Positions 21,706-56,906 of a stretch of DNA of 64,000 nucleotides are shown here, one piece after another. Each line of letters starts with the position of its first letter. Positions within the stretch are counted from its first letter, which is position 1. The notes beneath the pieces are model-generated. The model did no database searches. It had not been told where the DNA came from and saw only the letters and a program-made list of their open reading frames with translations. Source of the DNA: an uncultured delta proteobacterium (GTDB lineage: Bacteria > Desulfobacterota > BSN033 > UBA1163); assembly GCA_963731045.1 (NCBI GenBank), contig CAVSVC010000018.1:26496-90495 (forward strand), in the 5' to 3' direction. Made by a program: the position numbers and the translations under genes.

Positions 21706-21749
21706 CCCCCCTCCTTTCATGCCTTCGAGGCAAGTGTTTGAATGGCACA

Positions 21750-24700: not shown

Positions 24701-24886
24701 TCTCGGTCGACCATGACCATCGCGAAGGGGACGTGTTCGTACAAGGTCTGGAACCTGTCCGTTCCCGGAACTGAAGCACCCTTTCGCCGCTCGTCCGTTT
24801 TTTGGACAGAGAGGGTCTTTCGGGGAAGGGCCTCCGCGGATCTCTCTTCTCCGATTCAGGTTGTTGATACCGCCTCTTTTGGACAT
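21750..24886 (-). pseudogene. Hybrid histidine kinase (PAS-GAF-GAF-PAS-HisKA-HATPase-REC), at least five frame breaks as assembled
   Basis: The ATG at 24886 (GGAGGAG 7 nt upstream) opens MSKRGGINNL. Pieces 23821..24744, 23232..24062, 22229..23359 and 21826..22494, plus the tail [31 protein letters not shown] ending at 21750, are collinear with the intact paralog at 16737..19715. Breaks are near 24800, 24040, 23300, 22575 and 21845. Confidence 0.8.
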
Positions 24887-37226: not shown

Positions 37227-37312
37227 GTTACTGGTGATGGTGATAGTGATAGTAATAGTAATAGGGTTCGGCTCTTAACTATCACTATCACCGATCACTA
37301 TCACGTATCATT
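37227..37312. repeat. Inverted pair of hexanucleotide tandem arrays (GGTGAT GGTGAT AGTGAT AGTAAT AGTAAT / ATCACT-type)
   Basis: Left array 37233-37262, loop about 37263-37277, right arm 37278-37312. It sits between the convergent grx-like gene and uvrA. The uvrA C-terminus MIRDSDR* is encoded by the right arm. Confidence 0.8.
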
Positions 37313-40059: not shown

Positions 40060-40236
40060 CGGATTTTTATTATAACACAGCAAACTTCTCTCACCATCAC
40101 GGGTGGTCGGCGATTTTTTGATTGGCAAACGGGGGGATTCCATAATATACTCTATCCGTTTAAGGGGTTTCTTGGGTTACTTGAGTTCGTTGGGTTAAGA
40201 GCGTAGACCAGGTAAAGTAAGTTCGAGGGAGGATCG

Positions 40237-41255: not shown

Positions 41256-41558
41256 ATGAGGGATCCTATGAAGACCACAGCCATAACGGAGTTGAAGGCC
41301 CACCTGAGCGACTATTTGAATCAGGTGAAGAGCGGCACGGAGGTATTGGTTACCGAAAGAGGAAGGCCTGTGGCCAAGATCGTTCCCTTCTCCGGGAAAC
41401 AACGTCCGAGGCAGTCCCTGTCCAAGATGGAAAAGCAGGGGTTAATCAAACTCGGGAAAGGCAAACTTCCACAGGATTTCTGGACCCTGCCCAGGGGAAA
41501 AGATCCTCAAGGACTGGTCCTTAAGGCACTTCTTCAAGACCGGGAGAACGGCAGATGA
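41256..41558 (+). CDS. Phd/YefM-type antitoxin
   Basis: TAITELKAHLSDYLNQVKSGTEVLVTERGRPVAKIVP. Stop overlaps the downstream ATG (ATGA). Confidence 0.8.
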   Translation: MRDPMKTTAITELKAHLSDYLNQVKSGTEVLVTERGRPVAKIVPFSGKQRPRQSLSKMEKQGLIKLGKGKLPQDFWTLPRGKDPQGLVLKALLQDRENGR

Positions 41559-41977
41559 AATTCTGGGATTCCTCAGCCATTATTCCGCTGTGTCTGGAGG
41601 AGCCGACCTCAGAGGGAATACGGGCTGTGCTTGAGGGAGACGAGGACGTTGTGGTCTGGTGGGCGACACGCGTTGAATGCCTGTCAGCCTTAGAACGACG
41701 GCGACGTGAAGGCGCGCTTTCTGCGGAGGTTCAACAAAAGGCCAGGACGGTTCTGACCGCGTTGGCAAAGGGGTGGTCTGAAGTGCTTCCGAGCGAACTC
41801 GTCCGGCAGCGGGCGGAAAGGCTTCTATCCATTCATCCCCTGCGGGCGGTGGATGCCTTTCAACTCGCGGCAGCCCTCGTCTGGGCGGAAGAAGCCCCGC
41901 AAGACCTGGAGATGGTCTGCCTCGATCAGAATCTTCGAGAAGGGGCTTTTAAAGAGGGCTTCACCGTTCTTCCGTAA
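41555..41977 (+). CDS. vapC: PIN-domain toxin (VapC family)
   Basis: 140 aa. N-terminal FWDSSAIIPL (acidic Asp), central and C-terminal acidic residues (AVDAFQLAAAL, LDQNL). Confidence 0.8.
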   Translation: MKFWDSSAIIPLCLEEPTSEGIRAVLEGDEDVVVWWATRVECLSALERRRREGALSAEVQQKARTVLTALAKGWSEVLPSELVRQRAERLLSIHPLRAVDAFQLAAALVWAEEAPQDLEMVCLDQNLREGAFKEGFTVLP

Positions 41978-42194
41978 ACATGGCCGCTTTGGGTGCAGAT
42001 CGAAGCCATCGCGGTACGCCAACTTTTTGGCAACAACCCGTCTAAATCTTTTCCCCTCAATTCAATCCTCTCCCACCCATCGCTGTAGCGGCTACGCGCA
42101 AGCAGGCGCCAGCGAGAGGAGGAATTATTTTAGGTTCGTTCATTATCCGAAACCTGCAAGGTGTCTAAGGGGTTAACATCTCACGATTTGCGCC

Positions 42195-44669
42195 TTACGC
42201 TGTTACGTTATTTCGGCAGGGCTGTCGAGCCTTTCCTTTGGCGTTTCTTCCCTGCTCCGTCAGCATCCGCTTTGTCTCGGTCACCTCCTGATCGGTCACA
42301 CTCTTGCGCAGGCGTTCCATCTTCTCCATGACTTCTTTGAAACGGAGTCCCTCGGCAGCGCTGATCCACTCGAGCTGAAGCCTCTCGGGCCGTAATCCGA
42401 GCTTCTCCATCTTTTTCCGCATCCGTTTGACGCGCCGCTCCGTCCAGTGGTTGGCGTTGATGTAGTGGCAGTCGCCGATGTGGCAGCCGGAAACGAGCAC
42501 CACCGGCGCGCCCTTTTCGAAAGCCCGCCAGACGAACTTCTCCGAACCCGGCCCGAGCACATGGTCCGGATCAGCCGGACGTTGGGCGGATACTGGCAGC
42601 CGGGAGACGCCGGCGAAGTCGGCGCCCGCATAGGAGCACCAGTTGCAGGCAAAGACGAGCAATTCGCTCCGCCGGGTCTTCCTCCAGGATCGCGTCGATC
42701 TGGGCCTCGATCTGCTCGTCGGTGAAGTGGTTCATGAGGATGGCGCCGAAGGGGCACTCGGCGGCGCAGGTGCCGCACCCGGCGCAGGCCGCGTCGGTCA
42801 CACGGGCCGGGGTCTTTGCCTTGGTATCCACGGTGATGGCCTTGATACGGGCAGACCTTGGCGCAGATGCCGCAGGACGTGCACTCTTCCGCAACGACTT
42901 CGGCGGTGATCGCCTCGACCCGCAGGTCGAGTCCGGATGCATCAGCCGGATGGCCCGGGCCGCCGCTGCCGAGGCCTGTGTGACGCTCTCCTTGATGTCC
43001 TTCGGCCCCTCGGCGCAGCCGGCAAAGAAGATGCCGCGCGTGGCGGAGTCCACCGGCTGGAGCTTGGGGTGGGCCTCCAGGAAGAATCCGTCCGAGGTCT
43101 TCTGAAGGGCCAGCATCTCCTGGACGATTTTCATGTCTTCGGGCGGCTCGACCCCGACGGCCAGGACCACCATCTCCGCCCGGTGGTTCTCGAGTTGATG
43201 TGGTCGCCGTGTTTTCGACCGTGAGGACGAGATCCTTGCTTTTCGGGTCTTCTTGAATCGATCCCGGCAGCCCCCGGATGTAGCGAACGCCCGGCCCCTT
43301 GCTCCGCCGGAAGAGGTCCTCGAACCCCTTGCCGAAGGCCCGGATGTCGATGTAGAAGACCTTGACCTCCATGTCCGGAGTAGTGCTCCTTGAGCATCAG
43401 CGTGCTCTTGACCGTGTTCATGCAGCAGATGTTCGAGCAGTAAGGCTCCCCGCGCCGCTGGGACCGCGAGCCGACGCACTGGATGAAGGCGATGGATTTG
43501 GGGGTCTTTCCGTCGGTCAGCCGCACGACCTCGCCCTGGGTCGGTCCGCCGGCATTGATCAGGCGCTCGAACTCCAGGAGCGGTGAGGACGTTCTCGAAG
43601 CGGGTGTAGCCGTACTCGTCCAGTTCCGTCGGATCATAGGGTTCCATGCCGGTGGCGACGACGATGGTTCCCACTTTGAAACTCAATTCCTCATCGCTCA
43701 TGTCGAAGTCGATGCACTTCTTTTGACACTTCTCGATGCACTTGCCGCAGACGACGGGATTGTGGCCCAGGCAGTCATCGATATCGATCACATAGGCGGA
43801 CGGGACGGCCTGCGGAAAAGGCGAGTAGATGGCTTTGCGGGAGCACAGTCCCATGTTGAATTCATCCGGAACCACCACCGGGCAGACCTGGGCGCAGTCG
43901 CCGCAGGCGGTGCACTCCTTCTCGTTCACGTAGCGGGCTTTCTTGAGGATCTGGACCTGGAAGTTGCCCACGTATCCCGTGACGGCCTTGACCTCGCTCA
44001 CGGGTCAGCAGCGTGATGTTGGGATGCCGACCGGCATCCGTCATCTTCGGACCGAGTATTCAGATGGAGCAGTCCATGGTGGGAAAGGTCTTGTCGAGCT
44101 GGGCCATGATGCCGCCGATGCTGGGGCTCTTTTCCACCAGGACCACCTCGTAGCCGGTGTCGGCCAGATCGAGCGCCGCCTGGATGCCCGCCACGCCGCC
44201 GCCGATCACGAGGGTGGCGGGTTCAACCGGAACCTCGACCTCTTCACGGACCCCCAGCCATCGGGCCCGGGCGACCGCCGAGCGCACCAGGTCCTTCGCC
44301 TTTTGTGTCGCTCCCTCTGGGTCGTGGGTGTGAACCCAGGAGCATTGTTCGCGGAGGTTGGCCATCTCCAGGAGATAGGGGTTCAACCCCGCCTCATGAA
44401 GGCATTTCCGGAAGGTCGGCTCGTGGAGCCGCGGCGAGCAGGACGCGACGACGATGCGGTTCAGACCGTTGTTCCCGGATGTCGTCCTTGATCTGGTTCT
44501 GCCCCGGCTCGGAGCAGAGGTAGGTGTCGTGGCGGGAGACGATCACGTCCCGGAGCCCCTTGCCGTATTCGGCCACGGCTGCGCAGTCAACGACGCCGGC
44601 GATATTCAACCCGCAATGACAGACATAGATGCCGATTCGACTTTCCTCTTTTTCTTCCTTTGCCTGCAT
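42195..44669 (-). pseudogene. hdrA: HdrA-like flavoprotein fused to MvhD domain, selenocysteine-containing, about 10 frame breaks as assembled
   Basis: Collinear pieces run in frames 2-1-0-2-1-0-1-0-2-1-2: 44394..44669, 44060..44386 plus 43862..44044 (same frame across a TGA), 42571..44001, 43131..43637, 42296..43372, 42195..42662. Motifs: [50 protein letters not shown], several CxxCxxCxxxCP, and an MvhD tail LLVFACNWCSYAGADFAG...GCHIGDCHY. Confidence 0.8.
44015..44046 (-). promoter_or_regulatory. SECIS-like hairpin GGAUGCC-GGUC-GGCAUCC downstream of the hdrA TGA
   Basis: The TGA is at 44062..44060. A 7-bp perfect stem (44039-44033 / 44028-44022) with a GGUC loop starts 20 nt after it. Confidence 0.6.
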
Positions 44670-44696
44670 GCTGTTTCCTCACCCTTCTTAGTGCTA

Positions 44697-44866
44697 AGTG
44701 ATCAGACATCAGTCATCAGTGATCAGTTATCAGTAAAACATGTAACGCTTCATCTTTTGCTGATTAATAATCCTGGGTTACTGGTCCTTGGTTATTGATG
44801 AATGGTCACTGATCACTGACAACTGGTATTTGGTCACTGGTTACTGATCACTGATTACTGATTACT
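44697..44866. repeat. Inverted pair of heptanucleotide tandem arrays (AGTGATC-type x6 / GRTYACT-type x13)
   Basis: Left array 44697-44738: AGTGATC AGACATC AGTCATC AGTGATC AGTTATC AGTAAAA. Right array 44776-44866: 13 in-phase heptads such as GGTCACT GATCACT GATTACT. The right array encodes the C-terminus RVISNQ* of the hdrD-like gene. Confidence 0.85.
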
Positions 44867-46067
44867 CGTGTGTTACCGTCTTTTTGACTGATCGCCTTGG
44901 GCTCCTTCGACCATTCGATGTGATCGGCCAGGACGCTGACCAGGTCCCGGATTTCCATTGAAAGGGAGCCTCCCTGGTAAGGGTCCCGCATGGCGCAAGT
45001 CAGGTGGATCATGCACTTGGGACAGGAGGTGACCAGAAGATCGGCCCGCGTGGCCTTGGCCTCCTGCAATCGTTCCACCTGAATGCGCTTCGAGTATGCG
45101 TCGCAGTTGATAAACCCGTTGTTGCCGCAGCAGACGGCGCTCCGGCCGGAGTTCTTCATATCCTTGAGGGCAAGCTCCGGGACCATCTGCATCAAGGCCC
45201 GAGGCGATTCGCAGGAGCCTTCCAGCCGACCCAGCCGGCAGGGGTCCTGGTAGGTTATCCGGCGTTTCATCGGCTTAAACGTGATCCCTCCCTTGTGGAT
45301 TTCCCGGCGCAGAAGGTCCAGGAGCAGCGTCACCTTGAGATCGATGCCCGGAATCACTCCGGGCATGAACTGACTCAGGACCTGATAGCACTCCGGACAG
45401 GATACGATGATCTCCTTTACTCCGGCTGCCTGGAATTCCTGATAATTCAACCGGCAGAGTGTCTCGAAATTCTCGCGGTCGCCTGTCCAGAGTAGATCGT
45501 GGCCGCAGCAGCGCTCCTCCTTCAATACCACCGGGACGATGTCCAGGAAGTTCAGGAGCCGGATGCTGTCCCGGACAATGGACAGGGTGTTGACCTCGAT
45601 GCCGGAAAAGAAGACGTCGAAATAGGGAGCGCATCCGGTAAAGAAAGCGACGGAGCCGGACTGGGCCACCCGAAGTTCAGTCCCCAGCCAGTCCAGCCGG
45701 TTCTGCTCCAGGTCGGGTGAAGTCATGATCCTCATCCAGGAGTGGAGGGCCCCGTCATGGGACCGGGAGCCCTTGAGGCCTTTCGTCTCTGCCAGCAGGG
45801 TTCGCATCTCCAGAATGAAGTCCCGGACCTCGACCCCGGAAGGGCAGCGCTCCTCACAGAGCCCGCAGGTCAGGCATTCCCAGACGGAGTTCTCGATGAA
45901 GGATTCGTTGTCCGGCTCCGCAATCAGCTTATGGGCCAGAAGCCGCGGAGAGTATTCCTTGCCGCTGAGCATGCGGGGGCACGAGGCCGAGCATTTGCCG
46001 CAATCGAGACACTGGAGAGGGATTTGTCCCGGATGATTTCCTTGATTCGGGGGTCGTCCAGCTTCAT
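44848..46067 (-). CDS. HdrD/GlpC/DsrK-like iron-sulfur protein (2x[4Fe-4S] + two CCG domains), one frame break
   Basis: CLDCGKCSASCP, CLTCGLCEERCP, and CCG motifs ERCCGHD and AVCCGNNG. The true start MKLDDPRIKEIIRDK (ATG at 46067, ATGA overlap with the mvhD stop) joins the main frame if the TTT run at 46023-46025 is one base longer. The track ORF 44848..46275 has a spurious N-terminus. Confidence 0.82.
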
Positions 46068-46489
46068 GGTGACGCCCCCTCTTGCCTCGGTTTCGCAGGG
46101 TTCGGACCCATGGTGAGCATCTGGTCGGAAAACTCCCACAGGGCGCTGACCAGTTCCTGCTTCTCATGGGCTCCGAAGCTTCGTTCCACGAGCCGCTTCT
46201 GGCCGATCCCGAGAAGATGAAGCAATCTGCGCACTTTTTCCACATTGGAGTGGCCCACTTCCGGGCCGGGACCATACCGGCAGTCCTCGTCTTTGCACTC
46301 CAGCAGGATCACCCCGTCGGCGCCGTATTCAAAGGCCCGAAGGATCAGGGCCTGGTTGATGCGGCCGATGCACATCACCCGCATGAAAGCGAAATGGGGC
46401 GGCATCTTCAGATGGGCCATGCCCGCGGCATTGTAGCAGGCAAAAGGGCTCCAGTTGCAGCAAATTCCGAGAAGATTGGTCCGTTCCAT
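46064..46489 (-). CDS. mvhD: MvhD-like (methyl-viologen-reducing hydrogenase delta subunit family) protein
   Basis: 141 aa. ICCNWSPFACYNAAG...MRVMCIGRINQALILRAFEYGADGVILLECKDEDCRY. Confidence 0.8.
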   Translation of the reverse strand: MERTNLLGICCNWSPFACYNAAGMAHLKMPPHFAFMRVMCIGRINQALILRAFEYGADGVILLECKDEDCRYGPGPEVGHSNVEKVRRLLHLLGIGQKRLVERSFGAHEKQELVSALWEFSDQMLTMGPNPAKPRQEGASP

Positions 46490-46492
46490 GAT

Positions 46493-46726
46493 CTAATGGG
46501 CTCCTTCCAGGACACCCGCAACGATTTCGTCCAGGAGCCGGTTTGAAAAATAGGGCATGTCCAGGGCGGTCACCGGACAACGTCCGACACAAGCCCCGCA
46601 TCCGACGCAGTTGTAACGCAGGACCTCGGCGGTATAGGTCCACCGCGAGTTCGGACGGAGGTGAATCGCGTCGAAGGGACAGATCTCCACGCAGCGGCCG
46701 CAACCGCGGCACCGTTCCGAATCCAC
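46493..46726 (-). CDS. 2x[4Fe-4S] ferredoxin domain, probable C-terminal tail of hdrL
   Basis: CRGCGRCVEICP and CVGCGACVGRCP. Its frame continues upstream as AGAALAAQVARASAEAFLKDHELSPRV, which links to the hdrL body through two frame changes near 46805 and 46850. Confidence 0.65.
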   Translation of the reverse strand: MDSERCRGCGRCVEICPFDAIHLRPNSRWTYTAEVLRYNCVGCGACVGRCPVTALDMPYFSNRLLDEIVAGVLEGAH

Positions 46727-49700
46727 CCGCGGGCTGAGTTCGTGATCCTTGAGAAACGCTTCTGCCGAGGCCCGGGCAACCTGGGCCGCCAGCGCAGCGC
46801 CTGCCTAGAAAGGCATTCACTCGATCCGAGAGTCCGTGGTACGACCCGGTAAAGGCCCGGCTGAGGGGTATGAAAGAAGGCGAAATTGTAGCGATAGAAC
46901 TTCTTCAGACCGATCAGGTCCTCGGGAATGGCCAGGGAAAGGACACTTTTCTCGGTCAGACAGACGATGTCCGCTCGCCAGTGTAACTTCTTTCCTCCCA
47001 CCTGAACACCCACCCTGAAGTCGCCGATGTGGCCGGAGATCTCCTCGATGGTGGCGTGTTTCACATGGATGATGTTCTGACCCGAGACGAGGGAACCCGG
47101 CGGAAAGAGGTTCGAGATCGCAGGCCCCTGGTCATCTGCGAGGCTGCAATGGTGGACCAGCCGAACACGAAAGCCCTGGAGATCGAGGTTCAGCGCCGCA
47201 CTCATCCCGATTTCCGAGCCGCCCAGGATCAGGATATCCTTCCCGATCTCGGTGATTCCCTGCCGGAGGGGCCCCAGGAAGCGGGTCCGGATGAAGGCTG
47301 CTCGCAAGAGATCCCGCGTCCGGGTCACGATTTCATCTTCGGAAAGCCCCTCGACGGAGAGGTAGTCACGAAGGTTGATCATTTCGAAGCTGCCCCGGTC
47401 CAGACCGTGTTCGTCGAAGAGGTGAATCCGGGTGCGGTTTCGCTGATCGTTGCAGGAGATGCACTGGAACTCGAGGGGACAGCAGGCACAGGAGGCCAGG
47501 ATGACGCGGCTGAGCCGATGTTTCTTCACCGCGGACGCGATTTGGTCTGAGCCTCGGGGATGACAGGCGGAAAAGATCAGTTCGCTGTGCACCACGTCCG
47601 GCCCTTTTTTCGCCATGTCCAGGATCCGGTTCAGGGCGGACTCCGGCGCCATGGTTCCGTTGCAGGTGCAGAAAAATACGCCCAGCCGGGTTCGATCCGG
47701 GAGATGGGGCTTTCGTTTCGGTTCCGGCACGGGTTTGGACCGGAGCGGAGCGGCCAGGGCAATGGCTTGGCCTGCCGCGGCACTTCCCGCAATCATCATG
47801 TCGATCAGATCGGGTTTGAGTTCACCCACGTGGAAAACATTTCGGAGTTCCCGGTAGTCTCCCGGCGGCATCTCCTGAGCGTCTGCGACGATGACGCCCG
47901 GGCTGATAAAATCGAGCCGTCTCGATTTTCGGAAATGGTCGATCGCTCCGACTTCGGAGCAGACGCTTTCGCAGCTTCGGCACTCGCAACAGGCGCTGCA
48001 TTGAAGACAGCGCTTGGCTTCGGCAATGGCCTGATCCGTGGTCAACCCCAGGTTTACTTCTTCAAAATCGCGACGGCGCACTTTGATCTGCCTCTGGGCC
48101 ATCTCATGCCGAGGCTGCTGGGGAAGATCCTCCGAGATCGTTCTGTAGTCCCCCGCACCATGGGCGGGAATGGGCAACTCGACAAGGGGAGAAGGCTCTC
48201 CGGTCAGGGACTCGATGATTCTTCCCGCTGCAATTCGACCCTGCGCCATGGAGGCGAGTACCGTTGAAGGGCCGGCGACCACGTCGCCCCCCGCCCAGAT
48301 TTTCGAATTCCGGGTTCTGAGATCATGACCTACTCGAAGGGCGTTGAGGGTGACCTCCACTCCGGTGTCTTTCGTCAGGAGGTCGAGATCCGGGGTCTGT
48401 CCTGCTGCGGAGATGACGGTTTCCACCTCCACCCGGATTTCGGAACCGGGCACCGGCTTCGGCGTTCTCCTGCCCGAGCCGTCAGGATCGCCCATCTCCA
48501 TCCGAACGAGTTCCAGACCTGAAACCTTTCCGTCCTGAGTCAAGATCCGGACGGGACCTACTCGATACTCGATCCGAACCCCTTCCGCTTCCGCCTCAGC
48601 GATTTCCGTTTCCTGGGCCGGCATATCCTGGCGCTCGCGGCGGTAGAAAAGGGTCACTTCCGATCCCAGGCGGAGCGCAATGCGGGCCGAGTCGATGGCG
48701 GAGTTCCCTCCGCCGATCACGGCCACCTTCTTGCCGATCTTCATGCCCTGGCGTCGGTGGTGGTCCTTCAGCCATTCGACCGCGCCGAAAGATCCCTCGG
48801 CGTTCTCACCCGGGATGCCGAGGGGGATGCTCCGTTGTGCGCCCACCGCAAGAAAGATGGCGTCGAATTCTTTTTCCAGTTCTTCCAGCAGGACCTCCCG
48901 ACCGATGCAGGTGTTGCACTTCAGGTCTATGCCTGCCGCGAGGATTTCCCGGATCTCGCGATCCAGAATCTGCCGGGGGAGTCGATAAGCGGGGATGCCC
49001 CAGCGAAGCATGCCCCCCGCCGAGGACAGGGCTTCGAAGAGGGTCACGGAGAAACCGCTCCTGGCGAGGTAATGGGCGGCGGTGAGTCCTGCCGGTCCCG
49101 ACCCGACAACGGCCACCCGCTCTCTGCGGGAAGGTTTTGCCATGGATACGGGCAGATGGGCTCCGGACGGAGCGGTCTCATGATCGGCCGCATAGTCCGA
49201 AAGAAAGCGCTTGATATCGCGGATGGCCAGGGCCTGGTCCAGTTCCCCACGACGGCAGGAGACCTCGCAGGGATGATGGCAGACCCGGCCGCAGATCCCG
49301 GGCAGGGGGTTGTCTTCCCTGATGACAGCCAGCGCTTCCTCAAATCGTCCCGCTGCGGTCAGCGCCATGTAGGCCTGGACATTCAGTCCGAGAGGGCACT
49401 CCAATCTGCAGGGGCTTGTCTTTCGCTTGTCCAGCTCCAGTGCCCGGGAAGGGCAATAGGCCGGGGTACGGGAAAGCGGTAATCGGTCCTGCTGCTGAAG
49501 GGGACAGACTTCCGTGCAGCGGTTACACCCCGTGCAGAGATCGTAATCGATATAAATCGGATCCTGCTCTACCCGGACCCGGTAGCCTGCAGGGGTCGAT
49601 TCCAGGGACTCCACTCTGGCCCGTGTCAGCGGCGTTACCAAAGGGTGGCGGGTTACCCTGAGATAAAGGGGGCGGAACTGGAAATTCAAATCATCGGGCC

Positions 49701-49875
49701 ACTGAGGGACCTGCTCAACCCCTCCGGGCAATTCAAGGAAATGCTGTGCCCGGGTGACCCAGATGACCGGGACACCGGCCTGGGCCATATCCTCTGCCAC
49801 CTTCAGAGCCCCATAGCCCGATCCGACCAGCAACACGGCTTTCTCAGGGACCGCCATGTCTGAGAAAGGGGTCAT
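46570..49875 (-). CDS. HdrL-type large flavoprotein: HdrA-like domains fused to a GltD/NfnB-like NAD(P)H-binding module
   Basis: 1101-aa ORF. LLVGSGYG, CTGCNRCTEVCP, and a central GltD-like block (CGRVCHHPCE, VAVVGSGPAGLTAA, VAVIGGGNSAIDSA, WAGGDVV), then an HdrA-like region. The last roughly 90 residues of the ORF as listed are out-of-frame read-through. The ATG overlaps the korC stop (ATGA). Confidence 0.8.
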   Translation of the reverse strand: MTPFSDMAVPEKAVLLVGSGYGALKVAEDMAQAGVPVIWVTRAQHFLELPGGVEQVPQWPDDLNFQFRPLYLRVTRHPLVTPLTRARVESLESTPAGYRVRVEQDPIYIDYDLCTGCNRCTEVCPLQQQDRLPLSRTPAYCPSRALELDKRKTSPCRLECPLGLNVQAYMALTAAGRFEEALAVIREDNPLPGICGRVCHHPCEVSCRRGELDQALAIRDIKRFLSDYAADHETAPSGAHLPVSMAKPSRRERVAVVGSGPAGLTAAHYLARSGFSVTLFEALSSAGGMLRWGIPAYRLPRQILDREIREILAAGIDLKCNTCIGREVLLEELEKEFDAIFLAVGAQRSIPLGIPGENAEGSFGAVEWLKDHHRRQGMKIGKKVAVIGGGNSAIDSARIALRLGSEVTLFYRRERQDMPAQETEIAEAEAEGVRIEYRVGPVRILTQDGKVSGLELVRMEMGDPDGSGRRTPKPVPGSEIRVEVETVISAAGQTPDLDLLTKDTGVEVTLNALRVGHDLRTRNSKIWAGGDVVAGPSTVLASMAQGRIAAGRIIESLTGEPSPLVELPIPAHGAGDYRTISEDLPQQPRHEMAQRQIKVRRRDFEEVNLGLTTDQAIAEAKRCLQCSACCECRSCESVCSEVGAIDHFRKSRRLDFISPGVIVADAQEMPPGDYRELRNVFHVGELKPDLIDMMIAGSAAAGQAIALAAPLRSKPVPEPKRKPHLPDRTRLGVFFCTCNGTMAPESALNRILDMAKKGPDVVHSELIFSACHPRGSDQIASAVKKHRLSRVILASCACCPLEFQCISCNDQRNRTRIHLFDEHGLDRGSFEMINLRDYLSVEGLSEDEIVTRTRDLLRAAFIRTRFLGPLRQGITEIGKDILILGGSEIGMSAALNLDLQGFRVRLVHHCSLADDQGPAISNLFPPGSLVSGQNIIHVKHATIEEISGHIGDFRVGVQVGGKKLHWRADIVCLTEKSVLSLAIPEDLIGLKKFYRYNFAFFHTPQPGLYRVVPRTLGSSECLSRQALRWRPRLPGPRQKRFSRITNSARGWIRNGAAVAAAAWRSVPSTRFTSVRTRGGPIPPRSCVTTASDAGLVSDVVR

Positions 49876-50462
49876 GAGGCCTCCGGGGTTTGATCCAGTT
49901 TGGCCCGGCTCTTCCGGATGGCCTCTCCGTACTCGCGGCCGCGGTCAAAGGCTTTTCCGTTGTTTTCCCGGGTTCTATCCGGCACCGAACTGAGCATGGC
50001 CTGGCGTAAGGAGTCAACCTGCACGAGTTCGCTTACGGTGGAGAGAAACCCGAGCATGACGATGTTGGCCATCATTTTATTGCCGAGTTCCTGTGCGAAC
50101 CGGGTGGCCGGGAGGTGATAGGTGGTCCAGCTCGGATCCAGATCCCGGGTGCTGACCAGATCGGTGTCCCAGATCAGGAGTCCGCCGGACAGGAGAGAGG
50201 TAATATTTTTATCGAAGCCTTCCTGACTCATGCAGATCAAGACCTGTGCCTGCTGCACGTAAGGGAAGAGGATCTCCTCCTCGCTGATGATGACCTGGGA
50301 AGAGCAGGAACCTCCCCGCGCCTCCGGCCCATAGGCCTGGATCATGGTGGCGTGCTTCAGGTCATAGATGGTCGCGGCTTTGCCCAGGATGTTGCCGATC
50401 AGGATGATGCCCTGGCCGCCGAAGCCTGTGATCAAGATCTCTTTTTCCGCCCTGATTTCCAT
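49872..50462 (-). CDS. korC: 2-oxoacid:ferredoxin oxidoreductase gamma subunit
   Basis: Internal ATG at 50462 (MEIRAEKEILITGFGGQGIILIG...). The longer track ORF overlaps korB. Confidence 0.88.
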   Translation of the reverse strand: MEIRAEKEILITGFGGQGIILIGNILGKAATIYDLKHATMIQAYGPEARGGSCSSQVIISEEEILFPYVQQAQVLICMSQEGFDKNITSLLSGGLLIWDTDLVSTRDLDPSWTTYHLPATRFAQELGNKMMANIVMLGFLSTVSELVQVDSLRQAMLSSVPDRTRENNGKAFDRGREYGEAIRKSRAKLDQTPEAS

Positions 50463-50467
50463 GGGGA

Positions 50468-51364
50468 TTATGCTCCCGTCTGTTTTTCGGGCCTGGGAAT
50501 CTGACGTTCCAGCGCGGGCCAATCCCCCAGCTCCCGGCGGTTGATCAACTGATAGTTGTCCAGGAAGGTGGGTCTTTCGATGTCGACGAACTTTCCCACC
50601 ACCAGATGATTGTTGAAGTCCAACACCGCCTCTTTGGGGTCGATCTGGTTTCGGATGACCGAACGCTCGTGGAAGAATTTCAGCAGTTCCACCGAATTCC
50701 TCATTTTGTTCCGTCTTCCAAAGGCGGTTGGACAGGGGGCCAGGATCTCTATGAAAGAGAAACCCCGTTTCTGCATGGCTTCGATGAGCGAATCGGTCAG
50801 CCACCGAATGTGGAGAGCGGTCCAGCGGGCGACATACACGGCCCCGCAGGTGGCTGCCAGGGAGCAGAAGTTGAAAGGTTCTTCCGAATTCCCGATCGGG
50901 CTGGTGGTCGTTCTCGCCCCGAAAGGGGTGGAAGGGGCCGCCTGGCCGCCGGTCATGCCGTAGTTGAAATTATTCACGCACACAACGGTCAGATCCATGT
51001 TTCGCCGGGCCGCATGAATGAAGTGATTGCCGCCAATGGCAAAAAGGTCGCCGTCGCCCGAGGTCACGATCACAGAGCTGTCCGGTTTGGCCAGTTTCAA
51101 GCCGGTCGCAAAAGGGATGGCCCTGCCGTGGGTGGTGTGGAAGGAGTCCAAATTCAGATAGCCGGCCATGCGGCCGGTGCAGCCGATTCCGGAGACCATG
51201 GCCACATCGTTCAAGGGATATCCGGACTTCCGGATGGCTGTCAGGACGCAGCTGAAGACCGTGCCGATACCACACCCGGAACACCAGATGTGAGGGATCC
51301 GGTCGGTCCTCAACAGGTTGTCATGGGGATGGGCCGGGGGGGCCTTGCGTTTCTTCGTGCTCAT
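50468..51364 (-). CDS. korB: 2-oxoacid:ferredoxin oxidoreductase beta subunit (TPP-binding)
   Basis: ATG at 51364 overlaps the korA stop (ATGA). WCSGCGIG, GIGCTGR, GDGD...GGNH motifs. Confidence 0.9.
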   Translation of the reverse strand: MSTKKRKAPPAHPHDNLLRTDRIPHIWCSGCGIGTVFSCVLTAIRKSGYPLNDVAMVSGIGCTGRMAGYLNLDSFHTTHGRAIPFATGLKLAKPDSSVIVTSGDGDLFAIGGNHFIHAARRNMDLTVVCVNNFNYGMTGGQAAPSTPFGARTTTSPIGNSEEPFNFCSLAATCGAVYVARWTALHIRWLTDSLIEAMQKRGFSFIEILAPCPTAFGRRNKMRNSVELLKFFHERSVIRNQIDPKEAVLDFNNHLVVGKFVDIERPTFLDNYQLINRRELGDWPALERQIPRPEKQTGA

Positions 51365-52521
51365 GCCGTCTCCTTCAACGCCGCTTCGAGAACGGCAAGA
51401 ATTCTCTCCGGCCGGATGATCGTTCCGCCCGCATGGGATACCAGACGCACCGGGCAACGGCCGGCTGCGCAGCGTTCCAATTCCAGGACCATCTGTCCGT
51501 AATTGATCTCGGGCATCACCAGGGCACGCATCCTTCCGGCCAGATCCCGGATCATCTCTTCCGGGAAGGGCCAGACCGTGTTCAGCTTGACAACGCCCGC
51601 CTTGATTCCTCTCTGCCGGGCCTCGGCCACCGCTCGCTTGGCGGACCGGACACTGATCCCATAAGCCACGACCGCCACGTCCGCATCGTCCATGAGGAAA
51701 GTCTCGTAACGAACAATCCGGTCCACATTCTTTCGCACCTTTTGAACCAGGCGGTCGATCATCTCCTCCTGAGCGGCGGCGTCCATGACGGGATAACCGC
51801 GCTGATCGTGGGTCAATCCGGTGACGTGCATGTAATAGCCATCCCCAAAGGTTGCCATGGGCGCAACCCCATCGGCATCCGGACGATAGGGCAGGTGTTT
51901 TTCGGGCGGCCCCGAGGCCTTCTTGCGGTTGATGGCCTGTATCTTGTCGGCGGGTGGGATGACCACTCGCTCGTTCATGTGAGCGACGACTTCGTCGGCC
52001 AGGATGATGACCGGCAGCCGGTACTGCTCGGAGAGGTTGAAGGCCCAGATCGTAAAATCGAACATTTCCTGGGGAGAAGAAGGGGAGACAGCAATGATCT
52101 CATAGTGGCCATGGCTTCCCCAACGGGCCTGCATCATATCCCCCTGGCCGACCAGGGTGGGCAGTCCGGTGCTTGGACCGGCCCTCTGGACATTGCAGAC
52201 GACGCAGGGTGTTTCGGTGCAGAGTCCGAGCCCGATGTTCTCCATCATGAGGGAAAAACCGGGACCGGAGGTGCTCGTCATGGCCTTCAGGCCGCCCCAG
52301 CTTGCACCCAGGATTGCGGCCATGGATGCCAGTTCGTCCTCCATCTGGATGTAGACTCCCCCTACTTCGGGCAGCCTCTCCGACATCCGTTCCGCCACCT
52401 CCGTGGCGGGCGTAATCGGGTAGCCTGCAAAGAACCGGCAACCCGCAGCGATGGCTCCTTCGCAGCAGGCCTCGTCTCCGTTCATGAAATAGGTTCCGGT
52501 CAAAATGGCCTTTGAGGTCAA
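51361..52521 (-). CDS. korA: 2-oxoacid:ferredoxin oxidoreductase alpha subunit
   Basis: TTG at 52521 preceded by GGAGG. (M)TSKAILTGTYFMNGDEACCEGAIAAGCRFFAGYPITPATE is the family N-terminus. The longer track ORF overlaps korD. Confidence 0.88.
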   Translation of the reverse strand: MTSKAILTGTYFMNGDEACCEGAIAAGCRFFAGYPITPATEVAERMSERLPEVGGVYIQMEDELASMAAILGASWGGLKAMTSTSGPGFSLMMENIGLGLCTETPCVVCNVQRAGPSTGLPTLVGQGDMMQARWGSHGHYEIIAVSPSSPQEMFDFTIWAFNLSEQYRLPVIILADEVVAHMNERVVIPPADKIQAINRKKASGPPEKHLPYRPDADGVAPMATFGDGYYMHVTGLTHDQRGYPVMDAAAQEEMIDRLVQKVRKNVDRIVRYETFLMDDADVAVVAYGISVRSAKRAVAEARQRGIKAGVVKLNTVWPFPEEMIRDLAGRMRALVMPEINYGQMVLELERCAAGRCPVRLVSHAGGTIIRPERILAVLEAALKETA

Positions 52522-52615
52522 GCAATACCTCCAGTCAAAAAAAGACAGGCACCCGTGTCCGTGCAGATCGTAACTGACACGGGTGCGAATCACTGACACT
52601 CCCTGCGGCTGCGCT

Positions 52616-52882
52616 TCAGGTCTTGGGCGGCACCTCGACGGAGAAGATCGCAAAATCAGGGCAGAGGACTTCACAGAAATGGCAGTTGACGCATTTGTCC
52701 TCTTCCGCCACCTCCGGGAAAGTGTAGCCCTTGAGGTTGAATGTCTTCGACATCCGGAGGACGATGCGAGGGCAATACTCGACACACAATTCACAGCCCT
52801 TGCAGCGTTCTTTGAGGACGGTGACCTGCCCCTTTGTCACCTGAATGGTTCCCAGGTCAAGGGGAACGCGCCAGTATTTCAT
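52616..52882 (-). CDS. korD: 2-oxoacid:ferredoxin oxidoreductase delta subunit (2x[4Fe-4S] ferredoxin)
   Basis: CKGCELCVEYCP and CVNCHFCEVLCP. The D-A-B-C gene order matches oorDABC/korDABC-type enzymes. ATG at 52882 preferred over TTG at 52888. Confidence 0.85.
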   Translation of the reverse strand: MKYWRVPLDLGTIQVTKGQVTVLKERCKGCELCVEYCPRIVLRMSKTFNLKGYTFPEVAEEDKCVNCHFCEVLCPDFAIFSVEVPPKT

Positions 52883-53100
52883 CGTCAAATGCCTCTTGTC
52901 TTACGGGTCGGCAAATTGCCTTTGAGGTCCCGGTTGGGATAGAAAAAGTTCCGTCGGATTTCCTGGCCGGGAAGCGTTAGAAGACCATCATGATTACCCA
53001 TAAAAGTAACAGGAATTCCCTGATTCCGCAAATCCGCATTACATCCTTTCCCCTCTTTTTGGTTTGATTTCCGAGGCCCATGTGCTAAGATCGTCTGAAA

Positions 53101-53931
53101 TTGACTGAATTCAAGGGCACCCTGATGCTGCCTTCGCCGCAAATACAGAGAAACCTGATTCAGGTCTGGGGCTTCGTCTTTAAGAATTGGATCATCGCCA
53201 AGAGGAATATCTTCACCCTCTTTGAGATCCTCTTCTGGCCCGTGGTAGGCTTCTTTTCCGTGGGACTCCTGACGAGTTTCCTTGAGCTGGACCCGAACAA
53301 AACCGGGTTTATTCTCGTCGGCATCATCTCGATGAGTGTGATTCAGGTCTGCCAGATCGATGTGGCCTACGTCCTTCTCTACGACCTCTGGTCCAAATCC
53401 CTCAAACACAGTTTCATCGCTCCGATCCAACCTTTTCAACTCCTATTCGGCTCCTGGCTGATCGGGGTGATCCGGTCCTTCTGCGTCTTCGTACTGCTCT
53501 CGGTCTGCAGCTCCCTGGTGTTCGGCCTCGACTTCCTGAAACCGGGAATCGGCCCTCTCTGCCTCTTTCTGCTGGGGCTTTTCCTGACGGCGGCCTGTGT
53601 CGGGATGAGCGTCTGTATTCTGGTTCTGCTGTTCGGGTATATGGCCGATATTGCAGCCTGGTCGTTAAGCAGCCTGATCTTTCTGGTCTGCGGAATTTAC
53701 TACCCCGTCTTCATCCTTCCTTTTCCCCTCCCCGAAATAGCCCAGGCCATCCCTTTGACCTATTTCCTGGCATACTTTCGTTCCTTCTACGGATTCGACG
53801 AAGGGCTTAAGAACGTCTTAGGTTGGGGGTTCGGTCTGGCGGGCATCTATATTGTCGCGGAGGCATACCTTTTTAGGGTCGTGCTCCACCGTGCAAGAAG
53901 GACCGGTTTGCTCATCAAACTCTCGGAGTGA
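53101..53931 (+). CDS. ABC-2 type transporter permease
   Basis: 276 aa with six predicted hydrophobic segments. N-terminal ...FKNWIIAKRNIFTLFEILFWPVVGF is typical of the ABC-2 family. The start may be the ATG at 53125. Confidence 0.8.
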   Translation: MTEFKGTLMLPSPQIQRNLIQVWGFVFKNWIIAKRNIFTLFEILFWPVVGFFSVGLLTSFLELDPNKTGFILVGIISMSVIQVCQIDVAYVLLYDLWSKSLKHSFIAPIQPFQLLFGSWLIGVIRSFCVFVLLSVCSSLVFGLDFLKPGIGPLCLFLLGLFLTAACVGMSVCILVLLFGYMADIAAWSLSSLIFLVCGIYYPVFILPFPLPEIAQAIPLTYFLAYFRSFYGFDEGLKNVLGWGFGLAGIYIVAEAYLFRVVLHRARRTGLLIKLSE

Positions 53932-53939: not shown

Positions 53940-54100
53940 CAGTGATCAGTAATCAGTGACCAGTGACCAGTAATCAGTAATCAGTGAAACAGGGTCCTTA
54001 AAGAGAGATCTGCAACCGCCGATCAGCAACCAGATACCATTAACCAGACCAACAGAAATAAATCGCTACTTGTTTGACTGATTACTGATTACTGGTTACT
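53940..54100. repeat. Inverted pair of heptanucleotide tandem arrays (AGTGATC-type x7 / GATTACT-type x4)
   Basis: 53940-53988: AGTGATC AGTAATC AGTGACC AGTGACC AGTAATC AGTAATC AGTGAAA. 54073-54100: TTTGACT GATTACT GATTACT GGTTACT. It sits between the convergent permease and glpB and abuts the glpB stop. Confidence 0.85.
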
Positions 54101-55329
54101 TATCCTTTCAGGGCATTTTTGGCCGCTGCATATCCCGTTGAGATTGAAATCCCTTCCCTGGAGCCTTCCTCGATGGAATGGTGGCCTGAGAGGATGGAGC
54201 CTGCAACCCAGACATTTTCGAAGATGGGATCCCCGTTTTCGTTGATGGGATGAAGCGATGAATCCACCTGGATGCCGGAGGAATGAATGGCATGGGAAGG
54301 GGCTGCGAAAAAGGAATTTTCGAACCAGTCTTTTTGTGATCCGGGTTGTTCTATCGGAAGGTGAAAGAGAGGTTCCGAAATCTTCTCCCGGTCCGCTGTC
54401 AGGCCTCCTCCGATGAATCGCCCCGTGGCAAGGATATATCGATCCGCCGAGTAAGAAGTGATGACTGGAGGATGGTGAACCCGAACCTCTGCGCACCTCT
54501 TTTCCTTGACGCCGACCTCTGAAACAGAGTATCCCAGAAGAACAGTGACTCCGTTTTCGATCAGCCATTCCTTGAAACGGTAGAATATTCTCATCCCCGG
54601 GATCGAAGGAGGCAAGGTTGGAATCTCAAAAACCTCGACTCCGATGATCTGTTCAAGGCCCTTTTTAACTTGAAAGGGATCTTTCACCCCCAACACGGCA
54701 GGGAAGCCCACGCGGGTTTCGCCCTTCAGTTGTTTCTTAATCTCCTCGGCGATCCTGTTCCTGAAGGATGCTCTCTCCATCCAGCGTGCAAGGGCCGTGG
54801 CAGTGATCTCCCGGTTGGAACATTCGGGGAGTGAGAGGATCCTCTTTCGACATTCGAAACGGTCTGCCATATACCCGGCGTAAAAATCCTTGAACCCTTT
54901 GAAGCCGACGAACAGGGCATCCCCTTTTTTCAAAGAAACACCGGCTGTCATCGTACTGGGAACATAACGGGTTGACCTGAATGTTCCCGCCCCGGTAGGG
55001 GTGAGACCGTTTCCGTTGCCGAACGAATGAAAGGAATAGGGAGGAGGGAAAAGGGAAAGGAAGGAGGAAAGGGCTTCCTGGATCCTGTCCGGTTCCAGCT
55101 TTGCGTAGGGGTGTCCGGGGTGATCCTTCACCCACCTGGAAAGACCCTCACCGATGCTCATCGTCTCCGGAAGTTGTCCAAGAACATCAATGGTGTTTGA
55201 AAAAAGGGAGAGGGTACCTATCCCCTTTCCAATGATGAGGACTTTCTTTCTCTCCTCTGCGGCTGTCTTGGCCGCCATGAGTCCGGAGAGTCCCATGCCG
55301 ATAATGATGAGGTCGTAATGCATCATCAC
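54100..55329 (-). CDS. glpB: Anaerobic glycerol-3-phosphate dehydrogenase subunit B
   Basis: 409 aa. YDLIIIGMGLSGLMAA dinucleotide fold. Family-typical length and position after glpA with overlapping start. Confidence 0.85.
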   Translation of the reverse strand: MMMHYDLIIIGMGLSGLMAAKTAAEERKKVLIIGKGIGTLSLFSNTIDVLGQLPETMSIGEGLSRWVKDHPGHPYAKLEPDRIQEALSSFLSLFPPPYSFHSFGNGNGLTPTGAGTFRSTRYVPSTMTAGVSLKKGDALFVGFKGFKDFYAGYMADRFECRKRILSLPECSNREITATALARWMERASFRNRIAEEIKKQLKGETRVGFPAVLGVKDPFQVKKGLEQIIGVEVFEIPTLPPSIPGMRIFYRFKEWLIENGVTVLLGYSVSEVGVKEKRCAEVRVHHPPVITSYSADRYILATGRFIGGGLTADREKISEPLFHLPIEQPGSQKDWFENSFFAAPSHAIHSSGIQVDSSLHPINENGDPIFENVWVAGSILSGHHSIEEGSREGISISTGYAAAKNALKG

Positions 55330-56906
55330 CCCGCCCCCCCTCCCTTGCCCTCCCCCTCGAGGGGGGAGGGGAGGGTGGGGGCGAGATTAAAGATTCCCTT
55401 GTAGATCGATTCAATCAACTCGGCCTCCTTCAGGGCGGTTCCCCAGAGGATGGGACGGATTCCTCTCCAGCGCTCTTCGAGAAATCCTTTCAGGACGTTG
55501 TGCGAATCGCCTTTCGCCATTCCAAGATCGTGGAGCATGCCGAGAAAACGGTAGATACAGAACCCTCCCTGGCACGTTCCTTTGGCGAGACGCGTACGAT
55601 GAAGGATGTCCTGGAGATCCGCGGTCCTCCACCTTGTCAGGGCTTCCTCCACTTCTTCTCGCAGCACAAGCTCGCAGTCACAGAGGATTTCTCCGCTTTC
55701 ATCAAGCCTGGGACGGGCAATCTGTTTAAGACGGGCTCCAAATCCCGGGAATTCATGCTCCCCCTGCAGGGGAACAGAGTGAGTTGAACAGGGAACGGTG
55801 ATCCCCATCTTCCGGCAGAGAAAATCACTGACCCGTTCCGCCATGACCCGGTAGGTGATCAGTTTTCCTCCGGTGATGGTAACCAGGTTCTGCAACCCGT
55901 CACGGATCTCGTGATCGATCAAAGCAAAGCCCCGGCTGATTGCCCGATCCTGGCCTTTTTCCTCGGATTGAAAAAGGGGCCGAATTCCCCCGTAGGCCCG
56001 GATCAGGCGGATGTCCTGAATACCAGGGATCATCTTCGAAGTCTCCCTGACAAGGATGGAGACCTCTTCCGGGGTGACTTCAAAACGATCCACGTCCTCA
56101 ACCCGGACAGAGGTTGTTCCCAGGATGGAAACCGTATCATTGGGAACGATAATATCACCGTCACCCGGGGGCCGGCAACGATTGATGACCCTCTGGCTGA
56201 TTCTCCGGTTGGTAACGATCAGGGACCCCTTGGACAGAGCGAGCCCGATCCGTGTTCCCGCAAACTTCAGGATCTGGTTCGCCCAGGCTCCTGTTGCGTT
56301 CACAACGTAGGAGGCGCGGATGGAAACCTCTTCTTCTTGATGAAGGTCTCTGGCTTTGACCTCCCGGACACGCCCTCCTTCCACGACGAGGGAGGTGACG
56401 GCCGTATGAAGGAGAAACCGGGCTCCCCGTCCTTCGGCGTCTTTTGCATTGGCCGAGATCAAAGCGAAAGGATCAACGGCCCCATCCGGAACCTTCACAG
56501 CGCTTTGAAGGTCAGGGTGAAGGCCGGGTTCGAGATCAAGGGCTTCTTCCCTCGAAAGGAGACTCGTTTCAATCCCGGCCTCTTCGCAGGCCCCGAGAAA
56601 CCGGTCCCGGTAATCGAGAGGATCATCGGAAAGAGAGACGAAGAGCCCGTCGGTAGCTTCGATGCAATGGGGCGCAATGCGCTTCAGGATCGTATTCTCG
56701 GCAATGCATTCCCGTGCGGCCACCGGATCGGAAACGGCGTACCTTCCTCCGCTGTGAAGGAGTCCGTGATTTCTTCCGGAAGCTCCGGAAGCAAAATCCC
56801 CCTTTTCGATGACGATGGAGGGGATCCCGCGCAGGGAGAGATCCCTGGCAATCCCGACACCGGTGGCCCCTCCCCCGATGATGAGCACTTCTGTCTGGAA
56901 GTTCAA
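55326..56906 (-). CDS. glpA: Anaerobic glycerol-3-phosphate dehydrogenase subunit A
   Basis: 526 aa. VLIIGGGATGVGIARDL, GRNHGLLHSGGRY, BFD-like [2Fe-2S] region CDCELV...CQGGFC. Confidence 0.9.
   Translation of the reverse strand: MNFQTEVLIIGGGATGVGIARDLSLRGIPSIVIEKGDFASGASGRNHGLLHSGGRYAVSDPVAARECIAENTILKRIAPHCIEATDGLFVSLSDDPLDYRDRFLGACEEAGIETSLLSREEALDLEPGLHPDLQSAVKVPDGAVDPFALISANAKDAEGRGARFLLHTAVTSLVVEGGRVREVKARDLHQEEEVSIRASYVVNATGAWANQILKFAGTRIGLALSKGSLIVTNRRISQRVINRCRPPGDGDIIVPNDTVSILGTTSVRVEDVDRFEVTPEEVSILVRETSKMIPGIQDIRLIRAYGGIRPLFQSEEKGQDRAISRGFALIDHEIRDGLQNLVTITGGKLITYRVMAERVSDFLCRKMGITVPCSTHSVPLQGEHEFPGFGARLKQIARPRLDESGEILCDCELVLREEVEEALTRWRTADLQDILHRTRLAKGTCQGGFCIYRFLGMLHDLGMAKGDSHNVLKGFLEERWRGIRPILWGTALKEAELIESIYKGIFNLAPTLPSPLEGEGKGGGAG
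55335..55385. repeat. GC-rich palindromic repeat, copy 2
   Basis: Core CCCTCCCCCTCGAGGGGGGAGGG at 55348-55370. It encodes the glpA C-terminal tail PSPLEGEGKGGGAG. Confidence 0.7.

Follow-up and report, generated by a model that had tools for sequence, protein, structure and literature searches.

What could join a four-subunit 2-oxoacid:ferredoxin oxidoreductase (OFOR) to the flavin and iron–sulfur parts of heterodisulfide reductase (Hdr) in a single bacterial operon? The question is raised by a 64-kb stretch of DNA from an uncultured delta proteobacterium (contig CAVSVC010000018.1 of assembly GCA_963731045.1), here called the window; coordinates are those of the whole stretch. On its minus strand, read from 52882 to 42195, the open reading frames (ORFs) and the DNA itself give eight consecutive genes in the order korD-korA-korB-korC-hdrL-mvhD-hdrD-hdrA2, with hdrA2 coding for a protein that contains selenocysteine (Sec). 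An initial annotation, made from the sequence alone, had described seven packed genes on this strand. They lie where it placed them, with the junctions it gave, and the domains it assigned (four Kor subunits, HdrL, MvhD, and an HdrD-like protein with two CCG domains) agree with both Pfam and NCBIfam. The unit is compact, as was proposed, and in its conserved form it has eight genes instead of seven: what had been taken for a second, Sec-type hdrA-mvhD lying downstream is indeed of the Sec type, with an element like a selenocysteine insertion sequence (SECIS), and is a single fusion gene and an integral member of the unit.

Conservation of the eight-gene unit

An alignment of 14 HdrL homologues was used to scan GTDB, with one genome per species, and 74 loci were obtained. 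Counts refer to the loci assessable for each gene, with the window proteins as tblastn queries. The seed motifs of the scan being those of this HdrL subfamily, the result is that this particular HdrL always accompanies Kor; it does not extend to every HdrL-like protein. Wherever the genes could be assessed, they are present: korD and korA in 61/61 loci each, korB in 62/62, korC in 65/65, mvhD in 65/65, and hdrD in 61/61. The HdrA2 gene (hdrA + mvhD) follows directly downstream in 48 of 53. Two loci (L004 and L005) have ample downstream sequence, yet lack hdrA2, so that a seven-gene form exists in some lineages. The gene order is collinear in all 74 loci, more than chance would give, and the linkage is therefore not peculiar to the contig of the window. 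With the objection of uniqueness gone, a dedicated multi-subunit system becomes the most economical reading. An independent gene call with precomputed Pfam domains on a 4.77-Mb contig gives the same eight genes.

The loci are labeled in their records as Syntrophales/Syntrophaceae, Desulfarculales (including the isolate Desulfocarbo indianensis), Adiutricales, "delta proteobacterium," and Thermodesulfobacteriota, together with five actinobacterial-labeled bins, one Spirochaetota bin, and one Poribacteria bin. Abyssubacteria also occur among the HdrL protein matches.

The junctions are short throughout. In the window DNA, korA/korB, korC/hdrL, and mvhD/hdrD overlap by ATGA, korB and korC are 5 nucleotides (nt) apart, and the TAG of hdrL is followed, after 3 nt, by the ATG of mvhD; the longer korD–korA gap has 94 nt between stop and start. 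Among the loci, korA and korB overlap by 4 nt in 48/60, and korC/hdrL are at most 20 nt apart in 65/68 (with ATGA in 34). The same limit of 20 nt holds for hdrL/mvhD in 66/67 and for mvhD/hdrD in 58/64. Such tight junctions suggest translational coupling.

All ORFs of the loci, up to 10 kb on either side, were clustered. No further conserved family emerged, flanking families being found in at most 11 loci, and the module is thus complete in itself, its NAD(P)H site included. Genes for an electron-transferring flavoprotein (ETF), a DsrC/TusA-like protein, a lipoate-binding protein, or another carrier or substrate protein were sought within the same 10 kb, and none is co-conserved. The pairwise distance matrices of six of the proteins correlate, and the correlation between KorA and HdrL (r = 0.90) is as good as that between KorA and KorB (r = 0.83), which argues that the kor genes have not been swapped; this fits inheritance as a single block. 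Divergent second kor/por-like sets, 25–51% identical to the Kor of the operon, are present within 10 kb in four loci (L013, 40–2836; L017, 3744–6520; L056, 22837–23435; L064, 20470–22756). With such OFOR sets beside the operon, its Kor is a dedicated paralogue. L070 (20962–22764) has a second HdrL-like paralogue, 42% identical over residues 69–664, ∼8 kb downstream from the operon, with a TGA-containing motif of its own and a variant form of the hairpin.

The G + C content is ∼0.59–0.67 over the operon (42000–52800) and ∼0.50–0.55 on both flanks; it falls sharply near 52800, at the end next to korD, and more gradually beyond the hdrA2 end (near 42000). This step and the patchy spread over phylum labels suggest that the whole block was acquired horizontally, although an effect of amino acid composition is possible too.

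Domains and motifs of the subunits

The Kor subunits form a canonical four-subunit OFOR in D-A-B-C order, with the expected domains in each. The 88-amino-acid (aa) delta subunit is encoded by korD (52616–52882), with an ATG start at 52882 preceded by AAGAGG (the TTG of the ORF list is at 52888). It has two CxxCxxCxxxCP motifs for 2x[4Fe-4S], CKGCELCVEYCP and CVNCHFCEVLCP; Pfam finds Fer4_21 (40.9 bits) as well as Fer4 and Fer4_7, and the best NCBIfam match, OGOR_delta, is below cutoff. The alpha subunit gene, korA (51361–52521), starts with TTG, with a GGAGG Shine–Dalgarno sequence 7 nt upstream. KorA contains POR_N (236.7 bits) and PFOR_II (77.6 bits), both above cutoff, and scores 577.6 against NF006412 (cutoff 411). 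The beta subunit, encoded by korB (50468–51364), binds thiamine pyrophosphate (TPP_enzyme_C, 121.7 bits), and the gamma subunit, encoded by korC (49872–50462), is a POR domain (113.5 bits).

In the PDB, KorA is nearest to 1yd7 (alpha subunit of a Pyrococcus 2-keto acid:ferredoxin oxidoreductase, 4e-127) and to the alpha subunit of a 2-oxoglutarate:ferredoxin oxidoreductase (OGOR; 8ys5); with the alpha subunit of a pyruvate:ferredoxin oxidoreductase (POR; 9bt4), the match is 5e-14 only. The name kor given in the initial annotation holds at the family level, nearer KGOR/Oor than Por/Vor, but every 2-oxoglutarate-specific NCBIfam model stays below its cutoff (NF007206, 381 vs. 579; NF007207, 268 vs. 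364; NF042987, 67 vs. 125). The Kor of the window thus appears KGOR/Oor-like by similarity; pyruvate specificity is neither supported nor excluded by such comparisons. The PadE, PadG, and PadI models (phenylglyoxylate dehydrogenase type) give 82, 51, and 50 bits, far from their cutoffs of 700, 700, and 300.

HdrL (hdrL, 46493–49875) is a flavoprotein of ∼1126 aa in which HdrA-like domains and a GltD-like NAD(P)H module are joined in one polypeptide, with mvhD directly after it. This is the HdrL type defined in 2009 in Desulfobacterium autotrophicum (HdrA plus a GltD-like module, followed by mvhD; Strittmatter et al. 2009, PMC2702500). An HdrA-like Rossmann start with a ferredoxin half-domain comes first, then an NfnB/GltD-like NAD(P)H module (residues ∼150–655; Pyr_redox_2, 141.9 bits, and Fer4_20, 76.4 bits), then the HdrA N-terminal domain, a second Rossmann that is degenerate, and, at the C terminus, a 2x[4Fe-4S] domain. 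Residues 11–126 correspond to HdrA 149–264 (from the start of the FAD Rossmann to midway in the inserted ferredoxin domain), with the DCSxC/U cluster-ligand motif replaced in that segment. Residues 720–956 correspond to HdrA 1–239 (the N-terminal cluster domain and the degenerate second Rossmann start, GGSExG), and residues 1021–1123 to HdrA 560–660 (the end of the TrxR-like domain and the C-terminal ferredoxin domain). Against the HdrA2 model, residues 730–958 match positions 1–231 and the C-terminal tail matches positions 553–634. The NfnB-like module is 44–46% identical to the NfnB-type (NADPH-site-like) subunits of the bifurcating transhydrogenases NfnABC and StnABC in the PDB, and both of its dinucleotide motifs are invariant in the 14-sequence alignment. 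The intact HdrL orthologue of L001 scores 528 against NF009410 (cutoff 516). The segment mapping suggests that the NfnB part is inserted as in HdrA9–11 of ANME-1, HdrA–NfnB fusions in which the inserted ferredoxin domain is itself split by the NfnB-like part (PMC9012536). MvhD (mvhD, 46064–46489), of 141 aa, is a [2Fe-2S] adaptor-type protein (PF02662 FlpD, 107 bits).

The HdrD-like protein (44848–46067) is a fusion of HdrC and HdrB types, with 2x[4Fe-4S] and an HdrB-type double CCG motif (CCG, 84.8 bits, in two stretches). Of 61 orthologues, 59–61 retain the eight ferredoxin-type cysteines and both CX(n)CCX(n)CXXC motifs. Judged by these motifs, the intact non-cubane sites fit an HdrB-type disulfide chemistry. 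The closest solved relative is 9ojn_A, a 1042-aa "iron-sulfur-binding reductase" (1.7e-26); HdrC follows at ∼1e-10.

The last gene, hdrA2 (42195–44669), encodes an HdrA::MvhD fusion of ∼812 aa in intact orthologues. The 812-aa orthologue of L001 scores 1209.7 bits with NF040770 (HdrA2; cutoff 1100) over positions 1–775 of 777; because of frameshifts, the window copy matches that model in fragments only. The motif PTMDCSI-U-I contains an in-frame TGA (44060–44062), and all 52 distinct orthologous sequences have TGA there, never TGC or TGT. A SECIS-type hairpin, GGATGCC-GGTC-GGCATCC (44022–44039), lies 23 nt downstream from the TGA. Its stem and GGTC loop are identical at the nucleotide level except in two outliers (one being the L070 paralogue), and the hairpin is kept at synonymous sites while flanking codons vary at third positions. 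With UGA at a cysteine-equivalent position and a conserved stem–loop, the sequences mark HdrA2 as a bacterial selenoprotein.

Between hdrD and hdrA2, a 178-nt spacer (44670–44847, same strand) contains inverted arrays of CAGTGAT-like heptads and is predicted to fold into a long hairpin (minimum free energy −56.2 kcal/mol, z = −4.76). Equally strong hairpins are present in the two closest relatives (L001, 15018–15226; L002, ∼8490–8620), with repeats unrelated in sequence (CCCCCTC/GGGGGAG in L001, GCGCTATGC in L002). In more distant loci, the hdrD–hdrA2 spacers are short and lack long hairpins. The hairpin may be an intercistronic element for processing, stability, or attenuation.

In the window, korDABC and mvhD are intact, while the other three genes are frameshifted. 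The initial annotation had hdrL split as assembled, and the split is present in the assembled sequence; it results from two 1-nt insertions (near 46813 and 46845) and not from one event, the frame going from 0 to 1 for "RVNAF" and then to 2. In hdrD, there is a 1-nt deletion near 46012, ∼55 nt after the ATG, which had escaped that annotation. In hdrA2, tblastn gives at least six frame segments, with ∼10 frame-disrupting indels, mostly outside homopolymers. The HdrL homologues (1110–1197 aa) are all uninterrupted. Elsewhere on the contig, hybrid histidine kinase genes (PAS/GAF/HisKA/HATPase_c/Response_reg; 19712–24744, minus strand) are split over overlapping ORFs in different frames; in one example, HATPase_c lies in a separate ORF, where the match begins at profile position 35. 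Frameshifts thus occur contig-wide and are not limited to the operon. Since the orthologues are intact and the kinase genes are likewise split, most of the operon frameshifts are probably assembly indel errors. For the same reasons, a pseudogenized operon was not adopted as the main explanation. Real decay of hdrA2 in this organism is possible, because ∼10 indels are concentrated there and lie mostly outside homopolymers.

Around the operon, a VapBC-like pair (Phd/YefM antitoxin and PIN-domain toxin; 41256–41977, plus strand) stands directly past the end of hdrA2 and is followed by uvrA (37288–40143, minus strand). On the upstream side, a divergent ABC-2 permease gene (53101–53931) separates the operon from two adjoining genes for FAD-dependent oxidoreductases (DAO family, FAD_binding_2; 54100–56906, minus strand), which resemble subunits of anaerobic glycerol-3-phosphate dehydrogenase and are not conserved with the operon. 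Rfam, at the gathering threshold, gives no match anywhere in the window, and a promoter and terminator scan of 41.5–53.5 kb gave nothing better than shuffles.

Related systems

The arrangement had been presented as not characterized. No biochemical characterization, and no paper characterizing the operon, was found in the literature searched (most subscription journals lay outside the search), but the linkage itself has been noted before (PMC5947623, PMC11636981). In Syntrophobacter fumaroxidans, "HdrAL/POR (Sfum_0012-0018)" comprises about seven genes, with HdrA/HdrL and an annotated pyruvate:ferredoxin oxidoreductase (Sedano-Nunez et al. 2018, PMC5947623). By its description, it is very probably an operon of the type seen in the window, S. 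fumaroxidans being outside the 74 loci. It was named there without a proposed mechanism, and it carries an annotated POR where the window has a KGOR/Oor-like alpha subunit.

In Candidatus Endoriftia persephone, the Riftia symbiont, korABCD is found inside an Hdr–Flx cluster and is co-expressed with the reductive tricarboxylic acid (TCA) cycle; in the model proposed, electrons from NADH reach OGOR directly or via ferredoxin, with a thiol/disulfide co-substrate (PMC11636981). As in the window operon, a four-subunit korABCD is embedded in a putative bifurcating cluster that contains HdrA. In Endoriftia, the NADH input is FlxABCD, HdrBC is separate, Kor lies between hdrA and hdrBC, and genes of the reductive TCA cycle and pntAB are linked, whereas in the window operon an NfnB-like input is fused within HdrL, HdrD is fused, HdrA2 contains Sec, and no pathway genes are linked. 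No flxABCD genes stand beside the hdr genes, the conserved unit being kor, hdrL, mvhD, hdrD, and hdrA2 only. With these two reports, neither the idea nor the linkage is new. What is added here is the eight-gene unit with Sec-HdrA2, invariant over ∼70 species from several phyla; it carries an NAD(P)H site of its own and an HdrD with both CCG sites, and it is self-contained, without any linked pathway or carrier gene.

The methanogen Mvh/Vhu/Fdh–HdrABC–Fwd/Fmd assemblies have in common with the operon an HdrA-type flavin, an MvhD adaptor, and HdrBC-type CCG clusters. In place of free ferredoxin, their low-potential arm has a CO2-reducing enzyme hard-wired to it, for which the super-assembly formed by Hdr, Vhu, and Fwd (PMC13518236) offers a precedent. 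They differ in the donor (H2 or formate), in the partner (formylmethanofuran dehydrogenase), and in the substrate (CoM-S-S-CoB). Clusters of fdhAB-hdrL-mvhD are a further precedent for HdrA-type modules with low-potential enzymes. The loci of D. autotrophicum and ANME-1 are linked to dsr, fdh, or hdrBC, whereas kor accompanies this HdrL subfamily in all cases examined. With HdrA2B2C2 of Methanosarcina acetivorans (PMC5296606), the operon shares a full-length HdrA::MvhD fusion that matches the HdrA2 model; its own HdrA2 differs in having selenocysteine and, as CCG partner, the fused HdrD. F420 would not be expected in the bacteria that carry the operon.

The class II benzoyl-CoA reductase BamBCDEFGHI has two flavin modules in series and a separate NAD(H)-binding input (bioRxiv 10.64898/2026.04.10.717634). 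HdrL has its counterpart in BamE (a rearranged and enlarged HdrA), MvhD in BamF (an MvhD adaptor), and HdrD in BamD (an HdrD-like fusion), one for one. The Bam complex has a HydBC-like BamGHI input, the tungsten enzyme BamBC as catalytic low-potential output, and ETF as acceptor, while the window operon has Kor as its output or input. The distal cluster of BamD is degenerate in most homologues; in the HdrD of the operon, both CCG motifs are intact.

A possible electron path and its alternatives

We infer, from the solved Hdr–Mvh/Fdh–Fwd/Fmd assemblies and from the class II benzoyl-CoA reductase, that the eight gene products could form one soluble, multi-flavin, iron–sulfur-rich bifurcating or confurcating complex in which Kor is wired to NAD(P)H and to HdrD. 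We give this reading an even chance. The sequences themselves show the gene content, the cofactor motifs, the strict co-occurrence and order, the tight junctions, and the Sec/SECIS, whereas the physical complex, the bifurcation and its direction, the 2-oxoacid used, and the HdrD substrate are proposed. HdrL, MvhD, and HdrD would be the counterparts of BamE, BamF, and BamD; the NfnB-like module would stand in for a separate input module (BamGHI, Mvh, Fdh, or Flx), and Kor for the low-potential catalytic module (BamBC, Fwd). Kor would be joined, through KorD and the ferredoxin domains of HdrL and HdrA2, to an HdrA-type flavin, so that free ferredoxin would not be needed. The NfnB/GltD-like module of HdrL would exchange hydride with NAD(P)(H), and the two MvhD modules (one free, the other fused to HdrA2) would carry electrons one at a time to the HdrA-type flavin or away from it. 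HdrD would be the high-potential exit or entry, with a thiol/disulfide couple or a protein as partner.

Three couples would thereby be linked by flavin-based bifurcation or confurcation, at textbook potentials: NAD(P)H (∼−320 mV), 2-oxoacid/acyl-CoA + CO2 (∼−500 mV), and the more positive couple of HdrD. We lean toward the reductive direction, in which NAD(P)H would drive the synthesis of 2-oxoacids, with fixation of CO2, and simultaneous reduction of the HdrD substrate would cover the energy cost. We do so because the input module is most closely related to the NfnB-type subunits of NfnABC and StnABC, because the enzymes known to be hard-wired to HdrA modules reduce CO2 or are reductases of very low potential, and because the Hdr–Flx/KorABCD model of Endoriftia feeds OGOR in the reductive TCA cycle. 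Taken further, the operon could encode a self-contained NAD(P)H-powered 2-oxoacid synthase, a new route for CO2 into pyruvate or 2-oxoglutarate in energy-limited anaerobes (e.g., Syntrophales, Desulfarculales), which we consider possible, on the doubtful side. Two flavins in series (the NfnB-type in HdrL and the HdrA-type in HdrA2) would then lift NAD(P)H electrons to ∼−500 mV and feed them straight into Kor, and acyl-CoA would be carboxylated without free ferredoxin, the energy cost being met by co-reduction of a disulfide or a protein at HdrD.

Several points weigh against a wired complex of this kind. The direction of catalysis is fixed by no computed result. The AlphaFold2 model of HdrL, from the 14-sequence alignment, is too poor (predicted local distance difference test, 60.3; predicted template modeling score, 0.43) for inferring the internal wiring or the flavin sites, and Foldseek with that model re-found the NfnB-like module alone. 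If the indels in hdrL, hdrD, and hdrA2 are real, the window copy is non-functional. The S. fumaroxidans HdrAL/POR was detected in no proteome condition (PMC5947623), and no candidate carrier gene for an HdrD substrate is co-conserved within 10 kb. The nearest structure to HdrD, 9ojn_A, is not a methanogen HdrBC, and a disulfide substrate is therefore not assured. Finally, gene linkage fits a physical complex and a tight functional coupling via free ferredoxin alike. In the latter case, KorDABC would use free ferredoxin, HdrL–MvhD–HdrD–HdrA2 would be a separate ferredoxin/NAD(P)H:disulfide oxidoreductase, analogous to Flx–Hdr or HdrA2B2C2, and co-transcription would merely produce source and sink of ferredoxin together. 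The Kor subunits are indeed all canonical, including a delta ferredoxin subunit of the kind that normally serves free ferredoxin; the Methanosarcina HdrA2B2C2 uses free ferredoxin (PMC5296606), and no fusion of Kor and Hdr genes is found among the 120 top homologues or the 74 loci. The invariant order and presence over distant lineages and the overlapping korC/hdrL junction, however, are stronger than usual for co-regulation, and other OFOR paralogues are kept in the genomes for general ferredoxin metabolism. Coupling through free ferredoxin alone is, in our estimate, somewhat unlikely.

NAD(P)-linked OFORs are known, namely the phenylglyoxylate:NAD+ oxidoreductase PadEFGHI and the 2-oxoglutarate:NADP+ oxidoreductase of Azoarcus. 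The operon could likewise encode a non-bifurcating, NAD(P)+-reducing 2-oxoacid dehydrogenase, with electrons passing from Kor through the HdrL clusters and the NfnB-like FAD to NAD(P)+ and with the Hdr parts as a scaffold or a regulatory side branch. No part of HdrL is better conserved or scores better than the NfnB/GltD-like module, HdrL has a degenerate second Rossmann motif (GGSExG), and NAD-linked OFORs exist as curated families (the Pad models); those models are nevertheless far under their cutoffs here (82 vs. 700), and the strict keeping of a two-CCG HdrD, of two MvhD modules, and of a full-length Sec-HdrA2 would be left without explanation. We regard this as very unlikely. A variant that is unlikely, to a lesser degree, keeps the same complex and places a protein such as ETF at HdrD: its role in syntrophs would be confurcation, in which electrons from 2-oxoacid oxidation pull high-potential ones (e.g., from acyl-CoA oxidation) up to NAD(P)H. 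Many carriers of the operon are Syntrophales, HdrD is nearer to 9ojn_A (1.7e-26) than to HdrC (∼1e-10), and the HdrD-like BamD of the class II benzoyl-CoA reductase passes electrons to ETF. Yet both non-cubane motifs are intact in HdrD, unlike those of most BamD homologues, and no etf gene is co-conserved within 10 kb; that 9ojn_A is an ETF-linked enzyme is only a guess.

For energy-limited anaerobes, no currency is scarcer than reduced ferredoxin, and the 2-oxoacid synthases are their main ferredoxin-consuming steps of CO2 fixation. If Kor is indeed wired into one bifurcating or confurcating complex with NAD(P)H and HdrD, syntrophs and complete oxidizers would make pyruvate or 2-oxoglutarate from acyl-CoA and CO2 while sparing the ion gradient otherwise spent via Rnf; in the reverse direction, high-potential electrons would be lifted to NAD(P)H. 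An OFOR would be one more of the few enzymes known to be connected straight to Hdr machinery (Fwd/Fmd, BamBC), and the eight genes would offer a compact, bacterial, NAD(P)H-dependent model for HdrA-type bifurcation. The question of what the "bacterial heterodisulfide" is would also be sharpened. The strict conservation of the eight genes makes the hypothesis directly testable in cultured carriers.

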